Shown: positions 217 through 40,237, counted from the stretch's first letter. The stretch is 40,237 bases of DNA from Patescibacteria group bacterium (GCA_022703645.1 JAKLDG010000002.1:1-40237); one strand, 5' to 3'. Made by a program: numbers and translations. Notes: a model not told the origin generated them from the letters alone.

Positions 217-1926
217 TCAATCAAATGTCGGTTTCTGGTCGCCTTTCTCAACCACATTCCAAACCATACCGGCAACTGCGTCAGAAACATCTTTGCTCCC
301 TCCGTCAGGGTGGTCAACTTTTTTAGCTTTTATTGATTCCAAAGACATATACTCTTTCTCAAAAATATTTATCTTCTCGCCTTTGCCGTCAGTTATGGTG
401 TATCGGTAATAATCAATGCCTTTTAAGTGTAGCAATGCTTTGAGTGTGTCATAGGCTTTAGTATCTCGGTCAACAGATAATAGTTCTGCCTCTATGCCTC
501 GCTTGTTTAATATCTGAATACTATCAGCCGATTGCCAGCCGTCAAAAGTCACATAATTTATTTTGAATTTTCTCTCTATCATTGAATATAAAACTTGTCG
601 GACATCACTAAACATTATTTCTCCTCCCTCTGGTGCGGTTATTCTCATAATCAAATCTATAAATACTCTTGGTCTTTCTTCGCCGTCAAGTTCAATAAAG
701 CCGTCTGGTCTGCCAACTGCAATACCGCAAGAGTCTTTTTTCAAAGCAAGGTCAATATGAGCATACCGCCATTCGGAATCTTGACATACAAACCAGTCTT
801 TGAATTTTCCCTCCGGTGTCAATGGGTCTTCTCTTTCAAAATTAACATTTCTAACCACTACTTGCGCATCTCTGTCAAATGGTTCAAGAGCAAGGCTTGG
901 CTTACAACCAAAATCTCTCATAAATTTTTCAGCGTTCTCTTGGCTGGCTTTATAAAAATCCATTGGGATATTTTCCCAAATCTCTACTGGCTTTCCATTG
1001 TCGTCATATTGAGCCACGAAATTAAAAGTTTCCTTACTCATTTTCTTTGGGTCTTTTGCCTCCCAAGTTTTTTTCAAAGAGCAATGACTATCGGGGTCAT
1101 TTTTTTTATTAGCATAAATTGAATCCATTGCGTCATTGGAATATCGTGCCGAAGATATTGTGCAAGTTAGCCCGCTCCTTAATCCAAAGCGAGATGTCTG
1201 ACGATTTTTTAACATATCTCTGACTTCCTTTGCATTTGATTTTTCCTCTGTGTCTAAAAAGAAAGCAAACTCGTCCACTATCCAACTATAAACATTCATA
1301 CCAACTGGCATAGTTTCTTTTGAGTTTCCACAATAAATTACGAGATTGGCTTTTTGTGGGTCTAGTCGTTTTGAAAAGCGAGGCACTTTGAAAAATCTTA
1401 TCTCTCCTGATAATGCCTCGAAGTCAAAGTTTTGAAACCAAGCACAATTATTTATTAAATTACTCAATCCGGTAAATACAACATTCTTTGCTTGAAATGC
1501 ACTCACTCCCATATTGACAACAGCGATAGGTTTGTCATTCATTAAGCCAAGATATTCGTGCGGATTTTTTAAGCATAAAAGTATGTGCATTACATACGCC
1601 GTTAAGATAGTTGCAAGAGTTGATTTTCCCGAGCCAATTCCCCAGTATAAAATAATCTCTTTAATTCCACTATCCCACATTTTATTTACAATCTCTTTTC
1701 CCTCTTTCATCACTTCGGGATAAATGTCTTCACCAATACCAAGATAGCCATAAGCAAACTCTTCAAAGTCTGTGCAAGGCTTTTCTCTAAACTGCGGAAA
1801 TTTTAGGCAGAATGCTAACCCGAGTAGGTCTTTCTTCTCCATTGACGGCAATCGTTTGGATAGCGTCAGCAAGAAGTTTTTGCTGTCTTTCGTCGAGTTG
1901 CTCTCTTGCGTCTGTGGCAAGTCCAT
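217..1926 (-). CDS. terL: Terminase large subunit
   Basis: 569-aa ORF. Walker A-like GIGSGKST and Walker B-like WIVDEFAFF are followed by a nuclease-like C-terminal half, and the gene sits directly upstream of portal. An alternative ATG at 1842 is possible. The 5' end overlaps the preceding ORF. Confidence 0.88.
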   Translation of the reverse strand: MDLPQTQESNSTKDSKNFLLTLSKRLPSMEKKDLLGLAFCLKFPQFREKPCTDFEEFAYGYLGIGEDIYPEVMKEGKEIVNKMWDSGIKEIILYWGIGSGKSTLATILTAYVMHILLCLKNPHEYLGLMNDKPIAVVNMGVSAFQAKNVVFTGLSNLINNCAWFQNFDFEALSGEIRFFKVPRFSKRLDPQKANLVIYCGNSKETMPVGMNVYSWIVDEFAFFLDTEEKSNAKEVRDMLKNRQTSRFGLRSGLTCTISSARYSNDAMDSIYANKKNDPDSHCSLKKTWEAKDPKKMSKETFNFVAQYDDNGKPVEIWENIPMDFYKASQENAEKFMRDFGCKPSLALEPFDRDAQVVVRNVNFEREDPLTPEGKFKDWFVCQDSEWRYAHIDLALKKDSCGIAVGRPDGFIELDGEERPRVFIDLIMRITAPEGGEIMFSDVRQVLYSMIERKFKINYVTFDGWQSADSIQILNKRGIEAELLSVDRDTKAYDTLKALLHLKGIDYYRYTITDGKGEKINIFEKEYMSLESIKAKKVDHPDGGSKDVSDAVAGMVWNVVEKGDQKPTFD

Positions 1927-3289
1927 AATAGTTGTTTTGTATAAAATTATTATTAACCATAGCTTTTCTTCCTGAATTTAATATCTCGCTTAAAATGGCA
2001 ATCTGTCCGGCAAGGGTTTTGTCTTGAAGTCCGCCGTCAAGTTGTTCAAACATAACCCCACGAGATATTTTTTGAGCAAGGACAGTTGCAAGTTTATTGA
2101 CTGTATTCATTACAGTTTCCTCGTCCCTCATATCTAATTTATCAGCGTCTAGCACTTTATCAAATATCGTATTAAAACCGCACATTATTTTTTGTCCCTC
2201 TTGGGGTTCTTGGTATAGTGGACAATTCTCGGCGACATAGCAATTATTACAATACATTTGTCTAGTCGGATTAAGATATTGCCCATTCTTAAAATTAAAC
2301 ATATTTCCGCTCATTGCGTTTTTTAATCTTATCTTTCTTTTCATCTCAATTTCTGGGTTATCTCTGCAAATTAAGTGTATTTTCCCTCTATATTCTTTCG
2401 GTAAATTATCCGTTCCTTTCGTTGAGCCTGTTTCACTCCAATACTTCTTACTATGTTTATCAATATACTCTCCAAAAGTTATCCATTGCAAAGCATTCCA
2501 CTCATTGACTTCCTTTATTTCATCTTTAATAAATTTGTCATAATCTATCTTAGCACTCTCTACCTTTGGCTTTAAGAACTTTCTCATTTTCTCTTTTTCG
2601 TCTTTACCATAGGCTTCTAGTTTATTTTGGCGAAAATAGAAAGTCGCTCCAAATCTTGCACCGGCGAGCCACGAGGTTGAGTCCACTGAATAATATGGAT
2701 ACATTCTCATTTCTTGCTCTTTGGTCATAGCAAAGCCGTGAATTTTTGTCTTATGTTTTTTGGCTATATTAAATAATGACTGATTCGTTCCTTTGCTTGA
2801 ACTATGCACTATTCCGACATAGGGATATTTTTTGCACATCTCCTCAAAGTTTTCTTCTTTGTTGCCGTGATATACCGCAATCATTTTTTCTTTGGCGATA
2901 GCATACATTTCATCTCTCCACCTCATAGCTTTTTCTTCTCCAACCACATCAATAATATCTAGCTCTACTACCGCACTTAATACATCAAGATTTTCAGAAA
3001 CAAATTTTTTGTAATTTTCAAAGTAGTTATCATAGTTTCCGCCAAACTGTTCTTTGATTTTTTCACTGCCTTGTTTGATAGTAGCTTTCTTACTATCTTT
3101 TGTGCCGGATAATTCTGCACCGATAATTGAAGCGGCGCCCGAATCTAAAATGATAAATTCTACACTTTCTTTCAATAATTTTAATTTCTCTCTATCATCT
3201 TTCAAATATAAATAAGAAACCAGCACATTTTTTGGTTTGTGCTTTAAGACATAATCCATTTTTTCAAATCCTGCTAGGCAAACACGCAT
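1787..3289 (-). CDS. dpdA: DpdA-like DNA-guanine transglycosylase (TGT superfamily) with a ~215-aa C-terminal extension of unknown function (terS position)
   Basis: The N-terminal ~285 aa show the DpdA/TGT pattern as I recall it: VLVSYLYL, FIILDSGAAS, VVELDI, AVYHG, YVGI, KIHGFAMT, YYSVDSTSWL. The C-terminal part has a Cys cluster (CNNCYVAENCPLY...MCGF) followed by a helical region. ATG at 3289. An alternative ATG at 3259 has AGGA 8 nt upstream. The 3' end overlaps the terL ORF by 140 nt. Confidence 0.7.
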   Translation of the reverse strand: MRVCLAGFEKMDYVLKHKPKNVLVSYLYLKDDREKLKLLKESVEFIILDSGAASIIGAELSGTKDSKKATIKQGSEKIKEQFGGNYDNYFENYKKFVSENLDVLSAVVELDIIDVVGEEKAMRWRDEMYAIAKEKMIAVYHGNKEENFEEMCKKYPYVGIVHSSSKGTNQSLFNIAKKHKTKIHGFAMTKEQEMRMYPYYSVDSTSWLAGARFGATFYFRQNKLEAYGKDEKEKMRKFLKPKVESAKIDYDKFIKDEIKEVNEWNALQWITFGEYIDKHSKKYWSETGSTKGTDNLPKEYRGKIHLICRDNPEIEMKRKIRLKNAMSGNMFNFKNGQYLNPTRQMYCNNCYVAENCPLYQEPQEGQKIMCGFNTIFDKVLDADKLDMRDEETVMNTVNKLATVLAQKISRGVMFEQLDGGLQDKTLAGQIAILSEILNSGRKAMVNNNFIQNNYYGLATDAREQLDERQQKLLADAIQTIAVNGEERPTRVSILPKISAV

Positions 3290-4203
3290 TTTTCTATTTT
3301 CTTAATTATATTAGTTGGCGAATATATTATCTCGAACTTTCCTTGGATATGGTTTACGGCTGAACTGGCTATGGCGAAACTGGCTGAACTTTCTGATGTT
3401 TTTTTTATGTAATTGACTGCCTCTTGAAATGTATTTACTTTCCCATAGCTTGGGATATGCTCATAAGTCGATTTTCTTAATACTGGAATGCAACCGCTCA
3501 TTATTGCGTCAATGGTTGAATAGGAAAAAAACTCTAATTCACTCATTGAAAATACAAATTGCATTTTTCTTAATTGTTCCAAATATTCTTGCCGGTCATC
3601 AATATCCAATACTTGTATCTTTGTGCCTTTGACAAAAGGTTTAGCTTTTTCTCCTCCAAAACAATAAAAACTGAAATGACTTGGCAAGGCTTTGGATAAT
3701 TGCACGAAGAGGTCTAATCGTTTTGCTGGGTCGTCTATGCGATGATTATATACTACGCTGAATGGTCTAGTCTTTCTTAATACTCCTGCCTCGGGGTATA
3801 TTTCAAGGGGTAAGCCTATTTCTGTGCTTTCTATCTCAAAAGCTTTTTTTATCATTTTATCTACTTTTGGTGTTTGAGCAAAAGCCATTTTTACATTCTT
3901 AAATTCAGGATATTTTTCAGGGTTCAATAATATTGGGTGTCGGTGGAAAAATCCATAGACTTCTCTATCTTTATAATCTATTCCACAATCTAAATCAAGA
4001 CAAACCACTTTGCCTTTGTCTTTTATTTTAGAAACTAATTGCAAATATTTTTCCCGATTATAAGATTCGTTGAATTGATAAACTTTCCAATTATTCTTCT
4101 CGAACTCGGATTCTAATTGAGCAACCAATCTTCCCCAATCTGCTTGGTCTTTCTTCATTACACTTACCAAAATACCTTTGTAGGACTGTTCTTGTTTCTT
4201 CAT
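3274..4203 (-). CDS. GT-B-fold (GT4-like) glycosyltransferase-like protein embedded in the deazaguanine cluster
   Basis: 309 aa. The C-terminal half resembles the GT1/GT4 nucleotide-sugar-binding domain: HRIDDPAKRLDLFVQL...FYCFGGE...VFSMSELEFFSYSTIDAIMSGCIPVL (an E-x7-D/E-like motif followed by G-x-PV). Assignment is by motif only. Confidence 0.5.
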   Translation of the reverse strand: MKKQEQSYKGILVSVMKKDQADWGRLVAQLESEFEKNNWKVYQFNESYNREKYLQLVSKIKDKGKVVCLDLDCGIDYKDREVYGFFHRHPILLNPEKYPEFKNVKMAFAQTPKVDKMIKKAFEIESTEIGLPLEIYPEAGVLRKTRPFSVVYNHRIDDPAKRLDLFVQLSKALPSHFSFYCFGGEKAKPFVKGTKIQVLDIDDRQEYLEQLRKMQFVFSMSELEFFSYSTIDAIMSGCIPVLRKSTYEHIPSYGKVNTFQEAVNYIKKTSESSASFAIASSAVNHIQGKFEIIYSPTNIIKKIEKCVFA

Positions 4204-4882
4204 ATCTTTTTTTTGAATTAAATTTTTTATCTAAAACTCTTTTCCAATACTCTTGCGCGGTTTTTGTAGTAGCTGGATTTTTTAGAAAAATATCTCTCGT
4301 GTTTATGTGATTATATTCTAAAGCAATCCATTTCCTAAAACAACTTGGACATTCTCCGCATTGTCCCTCATCTTCACTATAACAAGACACGCTAGTTTTT
4401 AATAATTTTATTCTATCCGGTAATGATAATTTTACTTTGTCGGTTTCTAAAAACCATTTTATTATTTCACTTTTTGAATAAGCCCAAAATGGCGAACGGA
4501 TTGATATTTTTTCGCCGGTTATTTCCGATATAACCTCGCTCATTTTCATAAAAGCCCGAATATTTTTATCCGGCACATCATCGCCGTTTATTCCGATAAT
4601 ATAAACATTTTTTGCGTATTGTGCGCCGAGTAAAGCTAAAAATAAATTTCTCCCGGGTATATTGGCTTTATCTCCAATCTCAAATTTTCCTAGTGGAAAA
4701 TCTGCCTCAATAATTAGGCTGTCTTTTATTTCTTTATCAATTCTCGATAATCTTTCAAAAGTAAGCAATTCTTTTTCGGTGTAGTGAGTGAGTAGCGGAA
4801 CATAATAAGCGGTTGGCTTGCCTAGATAATACCAAGCGATTAAACTATCTATTCCTCCACTCATTAAGATAATTTCTTGCAT
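4091..4882 (-). CDS. queC: 7-cyano-7-deazaguanine (preQ0) synthase QueC
   Basis: PP-loop ILMSGGIDS near the N-terminus. The C-terminal Zn-Cys cluster is SCYSEDEGQCGECPSCFRKW. The start is set at ATG 4882; the track ORF start at 4894 is TTG. The last ~37 codons overlap the next gene by 113 nt (see finding). Confidence 0.85.
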   Translation of the reverse strand: MQEIILMSGGIDSLIAWYYLGKPTAYYVPLLTHYTEKELLTFERLSRIDKEIKDSLIIEADFPLGKFEIGDKANIPGRNLFLALLGAQYAKNVYIIGINGDDVPDKNIRAFMKMSEVISEITGEKISIRSPFWAYSKSEIIKWFLETDKVKLSLPDRIKLLKTSVSCYSEDEGQCGECPSCFRKWIALEYNHINTRDIFLKNPATTKTAQEYWKRVLDKKFNSKKRYEETRTVLQRYFGKCNEERPSRLGKIGCSIRIRVREE

Positions 4883-5148
4883 ATTGTTTTCCAATCCTTA
4901 AAAATTAAAGCTTTGTCGTCTATGTAAAACTCCCCGATAGGTTTGCCAAATACTATTCTGTCATATTTAATTCCGTATTCTCTCAAGGTCGCCATTGTTC
5001 GTTTCCGGTCGCATTGGTATCTTGAAGTGTGCAAGATTATCCGGTATTTTTCTCGAAGTCTATCAATGGCATTTTTAGTGTTTGGGATTATCTCAACTCT
5101 GTTCCGTAAAATAACTCCGTCAATGTCAATGACTATGGCTGGTTTCAT
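4864..5148 (-). CDS. Minimal HAD-superfamily phosphatase-like protein
   Basis: 94 aa with HAD motif I IVIDIDGVI (DxDG), motif II-like LHTSR, motif III-like GKP and motif IV-like YIDDKA. Its start overlaps the folE stop as ATGA. Confidence 0.55.
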   Translation of the reverse strand: MKPAIVIDIDGVILRNRVEIIPNTKNAIDRLREKYRIILHTSRYQCDRKRTMATLREYGIKYDRIVFGKPIGEFYIDDKALIFKDWKTICKKLS

Positions 5149-5693
5149 TTTTTTATTAAATTAAAAAATTCTACTCGAGTTGCCTCATTGTTTCTAAATA
5201 AGCCGGTCAATTTTGAAGTTATCATAACAGAGTTTTGCTTTTCTACTCCTCTTGCTCTCATACATAAATGCTCCGCCTCTAATACCACTGCCACGCCTTT
5301 TGGTTTTAAGGCTTTTTCTATCGCTTTTGAAACTTGCTGGGTTATTCTCTCTTGATTTTGCATACGCCTAGCATAAATGTCTAAAATTCTTGCTAATTTT
5401 GATATTCCAACTATCTTTTTTCTTGGAATATAAGCGATATGTGCTTTGCCAAAAAATGGCAATAAGTGGTGTTCGCAAGTTGAATAAAATTCAATGTCCC
5501 TCAAAATAACCATTTGCTCATTGTCCTCGTTCGTGAAAGTTGTCAAAATGTCTTCCGGTTTTTGTTTATAGCCTTCAAATATTTTGGCATAGGCTTTTCT
5601 CACTCGTTCTGGGGTTTTTACTAATCCCTCTCTTTTGCAATTCTCTCCAAGACAAGTAATTATTTCTTGGACTGCTTTGTCTATTTTTTCCAT
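5145..5693 (-). CDS. folE: GTP cyclohydrolase I (FolE)
   Basis: 182 aa with the hallmark STCEHHLLPFFGKAHIAYIP and the downstream QERITQQV motif. Confidence 0.9.
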   Translation of the reverse strand: MEKIDKAVQEIITCLGENCKREGLVKTPERVRKAYAKIFEGYKQKPEDILTTFTNEDNEQMVILRDIEFYSTCEHHLLPFFGKAHIAYIPRKKIVGISKLARILDIYARRMQNQERITQQVSKAIEKALKPKGVAVVLEAEHLCMRARGVEKQNSVMITSKLTGLFRNNEATRVEFFNLIKK

Positions 5694-5695
5694 AA

Positions 5696-5845
5696 TTAGT
5701 GCTTAAAAATTAAATAACCAATAAAAATTCCTACAATTCCTAGTATGCCTGCCAAATTGGTCGGCGCCGGAATTGGTAATCTTAAAAACGCAAATACTCC
5801 GCCTAAAATAAATCCTACTAAATATGCCTCTAATAAAATAATCAT
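5696..5845 (-). CDS. Small hydrophobic protein (49 aa, about 2 TM segments)
   Basis: Hand translation: MIILLEAYLVGFILGGVFAFLRLPIPAPTNLAGILGIVGIFIGYLIFKH. Its ATG overlaps the queE stop (ATGA) and its TAA lies 2 nt before the folE ATG. It is below the ORF-track size cutoff. Confidence 0.4.
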   Translation of the reverse strand: MIILLEAYLVGFILGGVFAFLRLPIPAPTNLAGILGIVGIFIGYLIFKH

Positions 5846-6486
5846 ATCCCTTTTTTCTTGTTAAATAAATTAACTTGCAATCTTGGACTGAAATTATATC
5901 CCATAAGCAAACACCACGACCATACTTGTTTTGCTTTTTGTTCTTGCTCTTTTTTAGTCTGTCCCTCCGGCATAATCCAAACACATTTATCCGGCACATT
6001 GTATTTCTTAATCGTTTCTTTTATAAATTTTCTTGAAGCTAAATCTGAATAGACAAATTTTACTATGGTATTTTTTTCACTAAGCATTGAGTCTGTCAAA
6101 AATACTGGTTCAGGGTTGCATTGTTTTGGTTGAAATCTTTTTTCTTTTGGCGATATGTTCCATTGATTGATATGACTAAAAATTCTTGGTTCGGGGATAA
6201 TTGTGCCATTCGTTTCAATTTCTACTTTGTAAGGACTGTATCGGTCAATCAAATCCATAATGGCTTGCTGTTGCAATAGTGGCTCTCCGCCGGTAATACA
6301 CCACTCGTCATATTTCTCTAAAAGTTTTTGGTCGGTTTTATTTATCTCTCTGCCTTTGATATGGTATTTCGTATCGCAAAAATTGCACCTTAAATTGCAA
6401 CCACTCAAACGAATAAACAATCTAGGCTTTCCGGCTGATATTCCCTCGCCTTGTATTGAATAAAAAATCTCGTTTATCTTCATCAT
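5842..6486 (-). CDS. queE: 7-carboxy-7-deazaguanine synthase QueE (radical SAM)
   Basis: 214 aa. Contains IFYSIQGEG and the radical-SAM cluster CNLRCNFCDT. Confidence 0.9.
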   Translation of the reverse strand: MMKINEIFYSIQGEGISAGKPRLFIRLSGCNLRCNFCDTKYHIKGREINKTDQKLLEKYDEWCITGGEPLLQQQAIMDLIDRYSPYKVEIETNGTIIPEPRIFSHINQWNISPKEKRFQPKQCNPEPVFLTDSMLSEKNTIVKFVYSDLASRKFIKETIKKYNVPDKCVWIMPEGQTKKEQEQKAKQVWSWCLLMGYNFSPRLQVNLFNKKKGI

Positions 6487-6626
6487 AATTCTTCAATTAT
6501 TCCAATTATTTCCGCACTTATCAAAAGCAATACAGCAATAATTAGGCTTTCTAAAAGCAAAATTAGCCCTAAAATTCTTAATATACTCTTGAGTAGACTA
6601 AATGTTTTGTGCCAATCAAAATTCAT
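6483..6626 (-). CDS. Small hydrophobic protein (47 aa, 1 TM segment)
   Basis: Hand translation: MNFDWHKTFSLLKSILRILGLILLLESLIIAVLLLISAEIIGIIEEL. Its TGA overlaps the queE ATG (ATGA) and its ATG overlaps the queD end by 11 nt. Confidence 0.4.
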   Translation of the reverse strand: MNFDWHKTFSLLKSILRILGLILLLESLIIAVLLLISAEIIGIIEEL

Positions 6627-7035
6627 TTTCTTTGTCTATGGTCGCTTCGTCTTGGCGGTCAACGCTAGGCGAATTTTCATAGTAAGTTATTGATGACTTA
6701 TCTGTTTCCCATAAAGTTATTGCAACTCTTGGTTTAATATCAAAATATTTTTTCAATCTTTGCACAACTCCTCCGTGAATAAGTTGAGCAAGATTTTCCG
6801 CCGTTGGTTCTATTGGCGCTATCACTAAATTCAAATTTTTATGGTCAAAAGCATTAAGCACATCTTTTAGTTCTGAAAAATCTATAACCATATTCCTTTT
6901 TGAAAGTTTTTCTGTTTCAATAACAATTTTTACCTTCCAATTATGTCCGTGAATTGAAGCATTGCATTTTTCCTCATATGCGTTTGTAAGTTGGTGGGCA
7001 GATTCAAACCCGCCGTGATATTCTAATCTATACAT
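6616..7035 (-). CDS. queD: 6-carboxy-5,6,7,8-tetrahydropterin synthase QueD
   Basis: Motifs FESAHQL, CNASIHGHNWKVKIVIE and VITLWETD-like. The start is set at MYRLEYHGGF (ATG 7035). The track ORF extends to 7074. Confidence 0.85.
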   Translation of the reverse strand: MYRLEYHGGFESAHQLTNAYEEKCNASIHGHNWKVKIVIETEKLSKRNMVIDFSELKDVLNAFDHKNLNLVIAPIEPTAENLAQLIHGGVVQRLKKYFDIKPRVAITLWETDKSSITYYENSPSVDRQDEATIDKENEF

Positions 7036-7106
7036 AATAAAATCAATATAATAATTAACAAAAATACAGGGCATAAAATATAACCAATCTCTAATATTTT
7101 ATTCAT
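7023..7106 (-). CDS. Tiny hydrophobic ORF (27 aa), speculative
   Basis: MNKILEIGYILCPVFLLIIILILLCID. Its ATG overlaps the stop of the 7103..7294 ORF (ATGA) and its end overlaps the queD start. It is too short to support by itself. Confidence 0.2.
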   Translation of the reverse strand: MNKILEIGYILCPVFLLIIILILLCID

Positions 7107-38124: not shown

Positions 38125-40237
38125 TTATTCAATTACTGGTAATATTGTGCAACGACAATTTATGATATTTTCGGGACTGCCGTTTGGGTCTCCCGGATAA
38201 TCTAATTCTTCATCGCCCACCTCAAATTTTTTATCAATATTGACGACTTGTCCGTCAGCGTGGCTATGTCCGTCTCTCGTTTTTTTGTCTTGTGTTGCCA
38301 ACCATTCCTTTTTTTTCACTACGCCGGATTGCTTATATCCAAATACTGTTCCTGCATTGTTAGCAGATAGCACCTCTGTTCTCGATATAGTTTTGCTACT
38401 GCTTAAAATTCTTAATCCATAAACCTCCTCAATTCTTTTTGCCAATTCGCCAATACTCTCTCCGTTTAATACGCCGTCTGCTAAGGTGTTTTTGATTTTC
38501 TTAATAGTCGTCTCATTTACTTCTTCTGCGAATTTCATTGCTTTTAATTCTATCCATTCGGCAGTTATCGGGTCGCTGATTTCAAAATCTTTTTTAATTG
38601 ATTTCTCTCCGACTTGTGCCAACGCTTCATTTCCAGCCTCCTCAACTATCTTTGTGAAAGTAGGCGTTGATTTCTTTATAAATATTTTAACCTCTTTTTT
38701 GAAATTAAGCAAATCCAATTCAGAACTTTTAACAGTCTTGCCAAGTTTTGATTTTTTCAAAGCCTCTAAGGCTCTCTCTTGTTGTTCTCGGAATAATGAA
38801 TTGACCATTGCCTTAAATTTTTTCTCCCAACCGATAATAGACTTGTCGAAAATATCCCAAGCTTTTTTTCTTTTATCTTCTTCCTCTTTTTTTACAGCAT
38901 TTTTACTAATTTGATTTTGAATTGATTTTGCTACTTCGATTGTTATTTTGGAAATTAAATCTTCTTTTAGTCTTAGCATTTTTCTTCCTCTAACTGCTTT
39001 GCGATAAATCTTTTTTAGTTGCTCCTCTTTTCTTCTTGTGTAAAATTCCTTAGCGGTTATGTTCCCTCCAATCTTAATAATAGCAAAACCTGATTTTGTA
39101 ATTTTCATAGCTTTATTCGTATCGTCATCGTCTTCGCCTGTGTCGTTCGTATTTTCAATACCCATAGGCATAAGGGATAGCGGTTGATAAATAAAATCTC
39201 CTCCCTCTATTGGGTCGTAGCCTTGCTCCATTCTTATTTCGTTGGTCGTCATCCATTTATTATGGGCTTTGATATAGTGGTCATCGAGGGAAGCTTTGTC
39301 GTCCGGTGTTGGGTCAATGTTCAATAAAAATAAATCGTCTCCATATTCTGTCACTAAAAATTGATTCAAGACATCGACGTGCTTTTCCATTTTTGGTCTA
39401 ATTGTTTCCGATAAGAAAGCATACACTCCAGCTTCTGCGTTGGCTCGGTTCACATCGTCAGTTATCGCCATAATTGCCTTGTTCACTCCGAGGGTCATTA
39501 AAACATCATCTCGGTTGGCAATTCTCATATTGGCAAAGTCCATATCTTTTTGAGAAACGCTCACTGCCTCATATTTCAATCCGTTTGTGAGAATAGAAAC
39601 TTTACCGGCATTATCTACACCACCATATTTCTCATTCCATTTTTCCAAAATTTCTTCCTTGTCCTCTTTGTTCATTGCTTTTTCACTTGTCAGCAAAGCG
39701 TCTGGTCTAGCAGAGTTGTAAAAAAATCTAGTATTCCATTTTTTAGCATAGACATCAGAACGGATAACTTCCATTACTGATTGCACTGCTCCATAACCGT
39801 AATAGTCTGAAAGTGGGTCAGGTTCTTTGAAATGTATCACATCTTCCGCCGGAAATTTTATCTCTTTTCCGTTTAAGCGAAATTTATAATAGCTAATCCC
39901 TCCGTCATTGGCTGGCACGATAGTAGTCAAGTCCGGTCTCATCAACCATAACTCAATTACTTGTTTGTTTGCTCCTCTAGCTTTATACCAATAGCATTGT
40001 CCTAGCAATGACAAATAAATCGAAGTTATTTCGATTAACTGGCTACCGCTCATTACTGGGTTTGGATTTTGAAGTAAGTCAAGAAGTTCGTGCTGTTCAA
40101 TTTCTCTTGCTTTCAATCCTCGTAATTGATAAAGTTCATATTCTATCGTGGACATTTTCTCCCCGATTTTCTTTGTGCAAGAGTGGACAAGTGAGCTTGC
40201 TCTGAATGATTGCAAATAATCTCTCGTGCTTGGTTCA
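38125..40237 (-). CDS. Portal protein (HK97 family) fused to a Mu F / SPP1 gp7-like head-morphogenesis domain; the 5' end continues at 78..163 across the junction
   Basis: The portal part reads LLDLLQNPNP...LLGQCYWYK...YYGYGAVQSV. The C-terminal ~250 aa end in TRDGHSHADGQVVNIDKKFEVGDEELDYPGDPNGSPENIINCRCTILPV, the MuF motif. An SD-preceded internal ATG at 40155 is an alternative start. Confidence 0.85.
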   Translation of the reverse strand, partial: EPSTRDYLQSFRASSLVHSCTKKIGEKMSTIEYELYQLRGLKAREIEQHELLDLLQNPNPVMSGSQLIEITSIYLSLLGQCYWYKARGANKQVIELWLMRPDLTTIVPANDGGISYYKFRLNGKEIKFPAEDVIHFKEPDPLSDYYGYGAVQSVMEVIRSDVYAKKWNTRFFYNSARPDALLTSEKAMNKEDKEEILEKWNEKYGGVDNAGKVSILTNGLKYEAVSVSQKDMDFANMRIANRDDVLMTLGVNKAIMAITDDVNRANAEAGVYAFLSETIRPKMEKHVDVLNQFLVTEYGDDLFLLNIDPTPDDKASLDDHYIKAHNKWMTTNEIRMEQGYDPIEGGDFIYQPLSLMPMGIENTNDTGEDDDDTNKAMKITKSGFAIIKIGGNITAKEFYTRRKEEQLKKIYRKAVRGRKMLRLKEDLISKITIEVAKSIQNQISKNAVKKEEEDKRKKAWDIFDKSIIGWEKKFKAMVNSLFREQQERALEALKKSKLGKTVKSSELDLLNFKKEVKIFIKKSTPTFTKIVEEAGNEALAQVGEKSIKKDFEISDPITAEWIELKAMKFAEEVNETTIKKIKNTLADGVLNGESIGELAKRIEEVYGLRILSSSKTISRTEVLSANNAGTVFGYKQSGVVKKKEWLATQDKKTRDGHSHADGQVVNIDKKFEVGDEELDYPGDPNGSPENIINCRCTILPVIE
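40161..40237. repeat. Terminal direct repeat, copy 2 (identical to 1..77)
   Basis: Same 77 nt as the window start. Confidence 0.95.

Follow-up and report, generated by a model that had tools for sequence, protein, structure and literature searches.

The 40,237-nt stretch analysed here (the window), from a Patescibacteria group bacterium (GCA_022703645.1 JAKLDG010000002.1:1-40237), carries a gene for a 500-amino acid (aa) protein in which a DpdA-type domain is followed by a cysteine-containing helical C-terminal domain (CTD). The CTD is probably a small-terminase-type (TerS) packaging subunit of a previously unannotated family. The window gene would then be a DpdA::small-terminase-like fusion, since the CTD holds the small-terminase position, overlaps the gene for the large terminase (terL) and is the partner of the large terminase (TerL) in this lineage. 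The CTD is modular and has clear boundaries; it adjoins TerL in the window's own subfamily and across at least six TerL lineages, and it and the conventional terS genes exclude one another. The window is nearly the whole of a 40,301-nt circular contig and represents a nearly complete circular genome, with all genes on the minus strand. Its features are listed in Table 1.

By homology, residues 1-285 are a DpdA-type domain, for which base-exchange activity is predicted. The whole protein matches PHROG 887, 'queuine tRNA-ribosyltransferase' (a 509-position profile), over residues 1-486 (E = 2.6e-40), and it also matches PHROG 7068 (E = 2.9e-5). In a tblastn search it matched 99 phage records annotated as DpdA or queuine tRNA-ribosyltransferase. 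The profile of the DpdA part, made from 15 homologues, spans residues 1-285, and AlphaFold2 (AF2) predicts a confident alpha/beta barrel of alternating strands and helices at residues 1-284, with a predicted local distance difference test score (pLDDT) mostly of 80-93. Both agree with the initial annotation, which had placed the end of the DpdA-like domain at about residue 285. The family motifs LDSGA, ELD, HGFAMT and SVDSTSW are invariant in the homologue alignment. The top Foldseek matches of the full-length model are all generic TIM barrels and none is specifically a TGT. A Pfam scan of the protein found no family at E <= 0.01, TGT (PF01702) included. Beyond the barrel, residues 283-302 form a linker with pLDDT < 50 in the full-length model.

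The CTD has four cysteines at 347, 350, 356 and 370 (CNNCYVAENCP...MC), and the sole other cysteine of the extension is C308. All four are invariant in an alignment of 13 sequences, and in one of 50 sequences their conservation is 90% or higher; the family-wide pattern is CX2CX5C(P)X8-13C, located after the barrel. They may form a metal site, possibly with an Fe-S cluster, as predicted from the motif. The only other invariant residues are E415, G419 and G420 (E120, G124 and G125 in CTD numbering, which is offset by 295), which are invariant or nearly so. An earlier full-length AF2 model made with 15 sequences had the CTD at low confidence; with the 50-sequence alignment the CTD model has a pLDDT of 82.8. 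This model has short N-terminal helices, a Cys loop, an antiparallel hairpin of 28 + 24 residues (CTD helices 95-122 and 129-152; block pLDDT 90-97) and two further helices, so that the helices after the Cys region lie at 390-417, 424-447, 453-464 and 467-483. The description of the extension as a Cys cluster followed by helices was therefore accurate. The oligomerisation cores of TerS proteins are built from helical hairpins of this sort.

The CTD is a mobile module that occurs free, fused to DpdA or fused to an unrelated N-terminal domain. A CTD-only profile searched against 1.84 billion representative proteins found 1,235 representatives (clusters of 50% identity) with E <= 1e-3, of which 535 reach E <= 1e-10. 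The same profile in a word-indexed protein search gave just four proteins, which is uninformative, and a tblastn search of GenBank phages with the free L097 CTD gave no match (here and below, L numbers denote loci). The top hits of the representative search and the first homologue set together gave 155 CTD-containing proteins that were classed by architecture: 99 are DpdA fusions, 42 are short proteins that are essentially CTD alone, and 14 have other N-terminal parts. The free form measures 205-230 aa, and free proteins of 207-229 aa (P0026, P0029, P0030, P0035, P0037 and P0038) align end to end with residues ~296-500. In the window's subfamily free and fused CTDs are interleaved by similarity, with 61% identity between L102 and L106 and 57% between L099 and L107, indicating that fusion and fission have occurred repeatedly with TerL adjacency kept. 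Some family members contain inteins (P0046, P0066, P0067 and P0101). In L113 (2-1021, = P0049) a LAGLIDADG intein lies inside the Cys motif of a free CTD upstream of TerL, between ...VLHN and CYAGLRCPYY..., and inteins are also found in the DpdA domain of homologues of 891-1152 aa.

Split DpdA-CTD pairs and free CTD genes in relatives raise the question of a sequencing or assembly frameshift that merged DpdA with a free CTD or terS gene. Such an artefact is scarcely credible. The identical 500-aa protein is found on three contigs and the same architecture recurs in the 99 fusions, so the fusion is not an artefact; these fused proteins, of 434-760 aa, fall into 99 separate clusters at 50% identity. 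Homologues differ in the length of the linker, which is in frame. About a dozen full-length homologues of 487-517 aa share the extension, and the 215 codons are conserved at a profile E of 3e-58, far beyond chance.

The CTD family has two subfamilies, a window-like one that is TerL-adjacent and a BCD7-like one that is mostly found with DpdA. Where the flanks are readable, 13 of 14 distinct lineages of the window's subfamily have TerL directly downstream of the CTD; 12 of these abut or overlap TerL, and the other (L018) has a 0.6-kb spacer. DpdA::CTD fusions lie directly upstream of TerL in the window, L003, L015, L016, L019, L024, L106/L107/L109 and L111. Stand-alone homologues next to terL, which the initial annotation had suggested looking for, also exist: in L097/L098/L112, L099, L102 and L103 a free CTD adjoins TerL with no DpdA beside it. 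In L097/L098/L112 the free CTD overlaps a Terminase_6-type TerL (PHROG 38, E = 4e-102) by 35 nt, an SPP1-type portal comes after TerL, and no DpdA lies within 6 kb upstream. The order in L099 is QueE-CTD-TerL, the upstream neighbour being QueE and not DpdA, and in L102 it is NinG-101 aa-CTD-TerL. CTD-TerL adjacency is seen with at least six TerL lineages, these being the window, BCD7/L017, L024, L019, Terminase_6 and SPP1-like types. The SPP1-like type comprises L106/L107/L109 and L111, where the protein encoded downstream has a match to the nuclease domain of SPP1 TerL (PDB 2WBN). In L017 (9483-10263) and L018 (9855-10474) a 0.6-0.8 kb ORF-poor spacer separates DpdA::CTD from TerL, and this could be a packaging-site or regulatory region.

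The longest open reading frame (ORF) of the window terL has weak PHROG terL matches (PHROG 2 and 17415) and strong homology to the TerLs of related loci, with identities of 66% to L003, 49% to L016, 48% to L099, 47% to L102 and 28% to the actinophage GTE7 (full length, E = 3e-51). The ORF coordinates agree with the range of overlap between the DpdA ORF and terL given by the initial annotation. The M29 start, which gives the shorter overlap, is favoured because of the conservation of the TerL N-terminus and the L003 gene call. Overlaps between CTD and TerL genes are common in the relatives: 41 nt in L003, 44 in L099, 59 in L102, 35 in L097, 17 in L107, 11 in L103, 8 in L111, and 4 in both L019 and phage Demosthenes.

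In the actinophages GTE7 (gp1, 472 aa) and Demosthenes (gp9) of Gordonia, TIN3/TIN4 of Tsukamurella and Reynauld (gp14) of Rhodococcus, the CTD makes up residues ~280-410 of a protein of 461-472 aa. The CTD profile matches these terS-annotated proteins at E = 1e-12 to 1e-16, and there are PHROG cross-matches as well. The gene for this protein opens the late genes, has TerL directly after it and bears the annotation 'terminase small subunit' (PHROG 6902). About 50 further related records have the same arrangement, and 44 Gordonia records carry the CTD; Gordonia phages are absent from the ten commonest organism groups matched by the window DpdA. The N-terminal domain of ~280 aa (L004 66-920; L010 4125-4958; L012 4155-4994) has no Pfam, NCBIfam or PDB match. 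It was considered as a divergent DpdA, and this was rejected (hhalign probability 0.1).

The distribution of conventional terS genes is complementary to that of the CTD. A scan of IMG/VR with the DpdA alignment gave 80 loci. Every CTD-less DpdA within ~3.5 kb of TerL has a terS-like ORF that abuts TerL, between DpdA and TerL, and a terS in this place is never found in CTD-bearing loci. The ORFs are of five families, with 190 aa in L001 (PHROG 309), 117 aa in L041/L059/L078 (PHROG 309), 284 aa in the L060 family (PHROG 1889, E = 9e-61), 122 aa in L040 and 226 aa in L034/L042, the last two without a PHROG name. The five families have homologues in 44 of the 61 DpdA loci that lack the CTD, against 0 of the 21 loci that bear it (Fisher p = 1.6e-9, for loci that are not phylogenetically independent). 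The TerL of L024, which has a fused gene overlapping TerL, is related to that of L001, which has a short DpdA and a terS; likewise, the TerLs of L015/L018 (fused) are related to those of L034/L042 (short DpdA, ParB and the 226-aa protein). The CTD and conventional terS therefore alternate within TerL clades. DpdA genes that lack the extension and lie next to terL, which the initial annotation had named as evidence against a fused small terminase, do exist, yet with a separate terS in between they complement the fusion reading and do not refute it. The 226-aa protein of L034/L042 and the other terS types were also considered as cysteine-less CTD homologues, and were rejected for want of homology to the CTD.

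The initial annotation had seen no separate terS upstream of terL in the window. PHROG scans of 20 further ORFs (7.4-19.4 kb) found none, with ~15 small ORFs left unscanned, and jackhmmer searches with the five terS families, which took in every window ORF of 50 aa or more, found none. This part of the claim holds for the ORFs that were covered. Three complete CTD-bearing genomes (the window, Bacillus phage BCD7 and Streptomyces phage GiJojo) have no recognisable or annotated terS.

The CTD begins with a short, basic helical stretch, continues with a Cys4 knuckle predicted to bind metal and a long hairpin tipped by FExLDGG, and ends in a helical tail. As a packaging subunit it would oligomerise through the hairpin and bind DNA and/or TerL, and may start packaging as TerS does. 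The fusion would then put several DpdA active sites on the concatemeric phage DNA at the start of packaging, and the exchange of guanine for 7-deazaguanine may thereby be tied to the packaging substrate. A more specific proposal, tentative and on balance doubtful, is that DpdA::CTD itself assembles into the oligomer that acts as small terminase when packaging is initiated, with a ring of DpdA sites that recognises DNA or modifies the concatemer, so that modification is mechanically coupled to packaging. In one variant the DpdA ring would recognise DNA by flipping bases in a sequence-specific manner, a task that usually falls to a helix-turn-helix; in the other it would swap guanines for 7-deazaguanines as the concatemer commits to the capsid. 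Such coupling, if true, would explain the selective modification of phage DNA and not host DNA.

Several results weigh against a packaging role. In a rival reading the CTD would serve DpdA as an accessory domain (for DNA binding, processivity, oligomerisation or an Fe-S redox function), comparable to DpdB. Proximity to terL would then reflect only the common placement of 7-deazaguanine clusters ahead of the packaging genes. Short DpdA genes, too, are found a little way upstream of terS-terL, and deazaguanine genes lie directly upstream of terminase genes in rosebushviruses (PMC10484667). The count of 99 fusions among 155 CTD proteins makes the CTD mostly a companion of DpdA. Bacterial DpdA requires the helper DpdB, a ParB-fold ATPase (PMC10164549).

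The BCD7-like subfamily has the pattern expected of an accessory domain. DpdA and CTD are fused in several of its contigs of 40-110 kb, with terL distant from the fused gene in Bacillus phage BCD7 (~30 kb) and Streptomyces phage GiJojo (~73 kb). Fused genes far from TerL are also found in L020, L021, L023, L025, L030, L031 and L114. In Bacteroides phage BS162P1 and seven IMG/VR loci (L022, L026, L027, L035, L039, L071 and L089), a separate CTD gene adjoins a short DpdA away from TerL. Even in the window's subfamily, the free CTDs of L100 (2134-2775) and L101 (969-1610) are not followed by TerL; these have a 640-nt gap before the CTD and a 327-aa protein after it. Many BCD7-like CTDs, among them those of L005, L017, L021, L022, L026, L027 and L089, end in a conserved GGILxxIFG.

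An accessory role is nevertheless unlikely. Free CTDs abut TerL in loci free of DpdA (L097/L098/L112, L102 and L103) or next to QueE (L099), and the actinophage proteins have an N-domain that is not DpdA. An accessory role also leaves unexplained why terS is absent from CTD-bearing loci and present in CTD-less ones. The TerLs of BCD7, GiJojo and L017 are one clade, and all three carry DpdA::CTD, which in L017 is directly upstream of TerL. With no annotated terS in BCD7 or GiJojo and a shared TerL clade, the BCD7-like subfamily neither contradicts nor demonstrates a packaging role. The alternative offered in the initial annotation was an accessory DNA-binding domain of DpdA; the prevalence of fusions and the BCD7-like genes fit it, and the free CTDs that adjoin TerL speak against it.

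Comparisons with known TerS proteins also fall on the negative side. A Foldseek search of PDB with the CTD model had a best E of 0.96 and no TerS, although Foldseek is weak on isolated helical hairpins, so the small-terminase fold that the initial annotation had proposed to look for received no support. A sequence-profile search of PDB with the CTD found nothing, hhalign comparison with four terS families of related loci was negative, and no Pfam or NCBIfam model covers the CTD, so that no characterised TerS family was matched. A BFVD search with the CTD model found uncharacterised phage homologues only. The sole terS label that this module carries, on the actinophage proteins (PHROG 6902/RefSeq), was given by gene position and not by experiment (PMC4524720).

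TerL adjacency alone does not specify a TerS function. The CTD could instead be another packaging factor, such as a pac/cos recognition protein, a regulator or an HNH-like cleavage cofactor, with the true TerS being an unrecognised small ORF elsewhere. The lack of similarity to known TerS fits this, as does the Cys4 metal site, which is unusual for TerS and typical of HNH or zinc-ribbon DNA-binding proteins. There are also unassigned small ORFs in the window and beside the BCD7 TerL. This possibility is quite improbable, since there is no gene-sized room between CTD and TerL in L097, L099, L102, L103, L107, L111 and the actinophages. The small ORFs upstream in L097 have no terS match (two were scanned with PHROG, and there is no precomputed Pfam terS match). 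Neither His nor Asn is among the invariant residues of the CTD, which therefore lacks an HNH active site. BCD7 gp105-108, four small ORFs upstream of TerL, were examined as a hidden terS and rejected, as they have no PHROG terS match and no homologue in the related L017 locus. BCD7 gp105 (L014 11510-11833, minus strand), immediately upstream of TerL, encodes a 107-aa protein that combines a zinc-ribbon (CPKCNGTG...CYTCHGRG) with a long basic tail, and has no PHROG function.

A small-terminase-type subunit is thus the reading preferred here for the CTD. Of the initial proposal of a fused small terminase, the positional part is supported by the free homologues at TerL, the actinophage terS position and the complementarity with terS; a fold or profile match did not emerge, and the family is mostly DpdA-associated.

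Table 1. Features of the window around the DpdA::CTD gene (positions in the window; all on the minus strand)
Feature	Position	Strand	Basis or remark
500-aa ORF, DpdA::CTD fusion protein	1787..3289	-	ORF list, PHROG 887, full-length homologues
DpdA-type TIM-barrel domain, residues 1-285	2435..3289	-	domain profile, AF2, invariant alignment columns
Poorly conserved linker, residues ~286-295	2405..2434	-	low pLDDT; variable, gap-rich alignment
C-terminal module (CTD), residues 296-500	1787..2404	-	end-to-end alignment with free proteins
Cys4 motif C347-x2-C350-x5-C356(P)-x13-C370, predicted metal site (Zn or Fe-S)	2180..2251	-	conserved columns
Long antiparallel helical hairpin, residues 390-417 + 424-447, candidate oligomerisation core	1949..2122	-	AF2
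Conserved FEQLDGG turn (E415, G419, G420), hairpin tip	2030..2050	-	alignments
Large terminase gene, longest ORF 569 aa; probable start ATG 1842 (M29)	217..1926	-	PHROG and homology
Overlap of DpdA::CTD 3' end with terL, 56 nt	1787..1842	-	140 nt, up to ATG 1926, with longest terL ORF
Glycosyltransferase (GT)-like gene directly upstream of DpdA	3274..4203	-	weak PF03016 match
PreQ0 pathway cluster	4091..7074	-	Pfam matches QueC, GTP_cyclohydroI, Radical_SAM/Fer4_12, PTPS
QueC-like	4091-4894	-	
HAD-like, small	4864-5148	-	
FolE	5145-5693	-	
QueE	5842-6486	-	
QueD	6616-7074	-	
Portal gene, next after terL across the window ends	38125..40215	-	46% identity to L003 portal

The genes upstream of DpdA are GT-like, QueC-like, HAD-like, FolE, QueE and QueD, in agreement with the que genes named in the initial annotation. 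L003 (339 aa, 27% identity) and L001 (326 aa) each have a homologue of the GT-like gene in this place, and the GT-like product could decorate the modified base or DNA further. The true start of the window's GT-like gene is uncertain because the 3' end of the QueC-like ORF overlaps it by 113 nt. Of the Pfam QueC model, the QueC-like ORF covers positions 90-206 only. Amid the que genes lie two hydrophobic ORFs of very small size, at 5696-5845 (49 aa) and 6483-6626 (47 aa), both on the minus strand, and a 72-aa ORF after DpdA in L001 has a C-terminus (...AELAGIVEEF) similar to theirs. On the other side, terL is followed across the window ends by portal, protease and capsid genes at 36-40 kb; the L003 portal has the Pfam domains Phage_portal and Mu_F. 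A megablast search of GenBank phages with the first 8 kb of the window gave no match.

Deazaguanine clusters directly upstream of terminase genes were already known (PMC10484667), as were positional terS labels in PHROG and RefSeq. Literature searches found no description of a DpdA C-terminal module, of free homologues at the terS position or of a DpdA-terminase fusion, and no relevant cysteine or Fe-S small terminase. The main interest lies in naming the missing TerS of many phages, and the results suggest a possible physical link between hypermodification and packaging. If the packaging role is true, a large unrecognised family, with its 1,235 representatives and no Pfam or NCBIfam model, would be that TerS. 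The phages affected would be Bacteroidota-type metagenomic phages, Bacillus BCD7, Streptomyces BRock and GiJojo, and Gordonia GTE7-like phages, where annotation shows only 'terminase'; the names that current pipelines give the family are 'queuine tRNA-ribosyltransferase' and 'hypothetical protein'. Among small terminases, a TerS with a cysteine cluster would add a new structural class. By joining an enzyme of base exchange with a packaging subunit, the fusion would tie post-replicative anti-restriction modification to the packaging substrate in a new way, and would bear on the time and place of DpdA action and on the large differences in modification level among DpdA subfamilies (PMC10516641). 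Should the CTD be an accessory domain instead, it would still be an uncharacterised DNA-targeting module for DpdA, relevant to the engineering of modified DNA.

Compared with known systems, the window protein resembles the phage DpdA proteins (subfamilies DpdA1-4, Hutinet et al., PMC10516641; PHROG 887 and 7068) in its family match, TIM barrel and FolE/QueD/QueE/QueC neighbours, and differs from them in its extra 205-residue C-terminal module, which is not mentioned in the literature consulted. Bacterial DpdA and TGT have a CXCX2CX22H zinc site (PMC10164549). This site is not present in the window DpdA domain, since its only cysteines are C4 and C152, and the lack of a Pfam TGT match is a second difference. 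The CTD Cys cluster was considered as the canonical zinc site and rejected, as its motif differs and it sits outside the barrel.

DpdB is an accessory polypeptide of a DNA-acting DpdA, and its helical C-terminal domains are proposed to encircle double-stranded DNA (PMC10164549); an accessory CTD would be similar in this respect. The CTD differs in having no ParB_N match and in occurring also without DpdA, next to TerL. ParB-like (ParB_N) genes are instead separate ORFs beside CTD-less DpdAs. They lie directly after the short DpdA and before terS-terL in L001 (9110-9733), L034 (6997-7695), L041 (8831-9466), L042 (8884-9570), L059 (8846-9505) and L078 (5084-5755), and by analogy may be the phage counterpart of DpdB.

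The CX2CX5CP motif resembles Fe-S ligand motifs of DNA-processing enzymes, which would also suit an accessory role. HNH endonucleases of the HK97 gp74 type adjoin the terminases of HK97-like phages as a cleavage cofactor. The CTD is like them a small cysteine-containing protein beside terminase genes, but it has no His-Asn-His and is mainly helical. TerS proteins of tailed phages, such as SPP1 G1P, Sf6 gp1, P22 gp3 and T4 gp16, differ from the CTD in that it has no detectable sequence or fold similarity to them, no recognised helix-turn-helix and an invariant Cys4 motif, predicted to bind metal, and is often fused to an enzyme domain of ~285 aa. They are alike in lying directly upstream of terL on the same strand with overlap, in the size of the free CTD, in a predicted layout of N-terminal basic region, central long hairpin and C-terminal tail, and in its exclusivity with conventional terS. 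The PHROG 6902/GTE7 gp1 type differs from the window gene in its N-terminal ~280 residues and shares with it both the homologous CTD and its place before a TerL homologous to that of the window.

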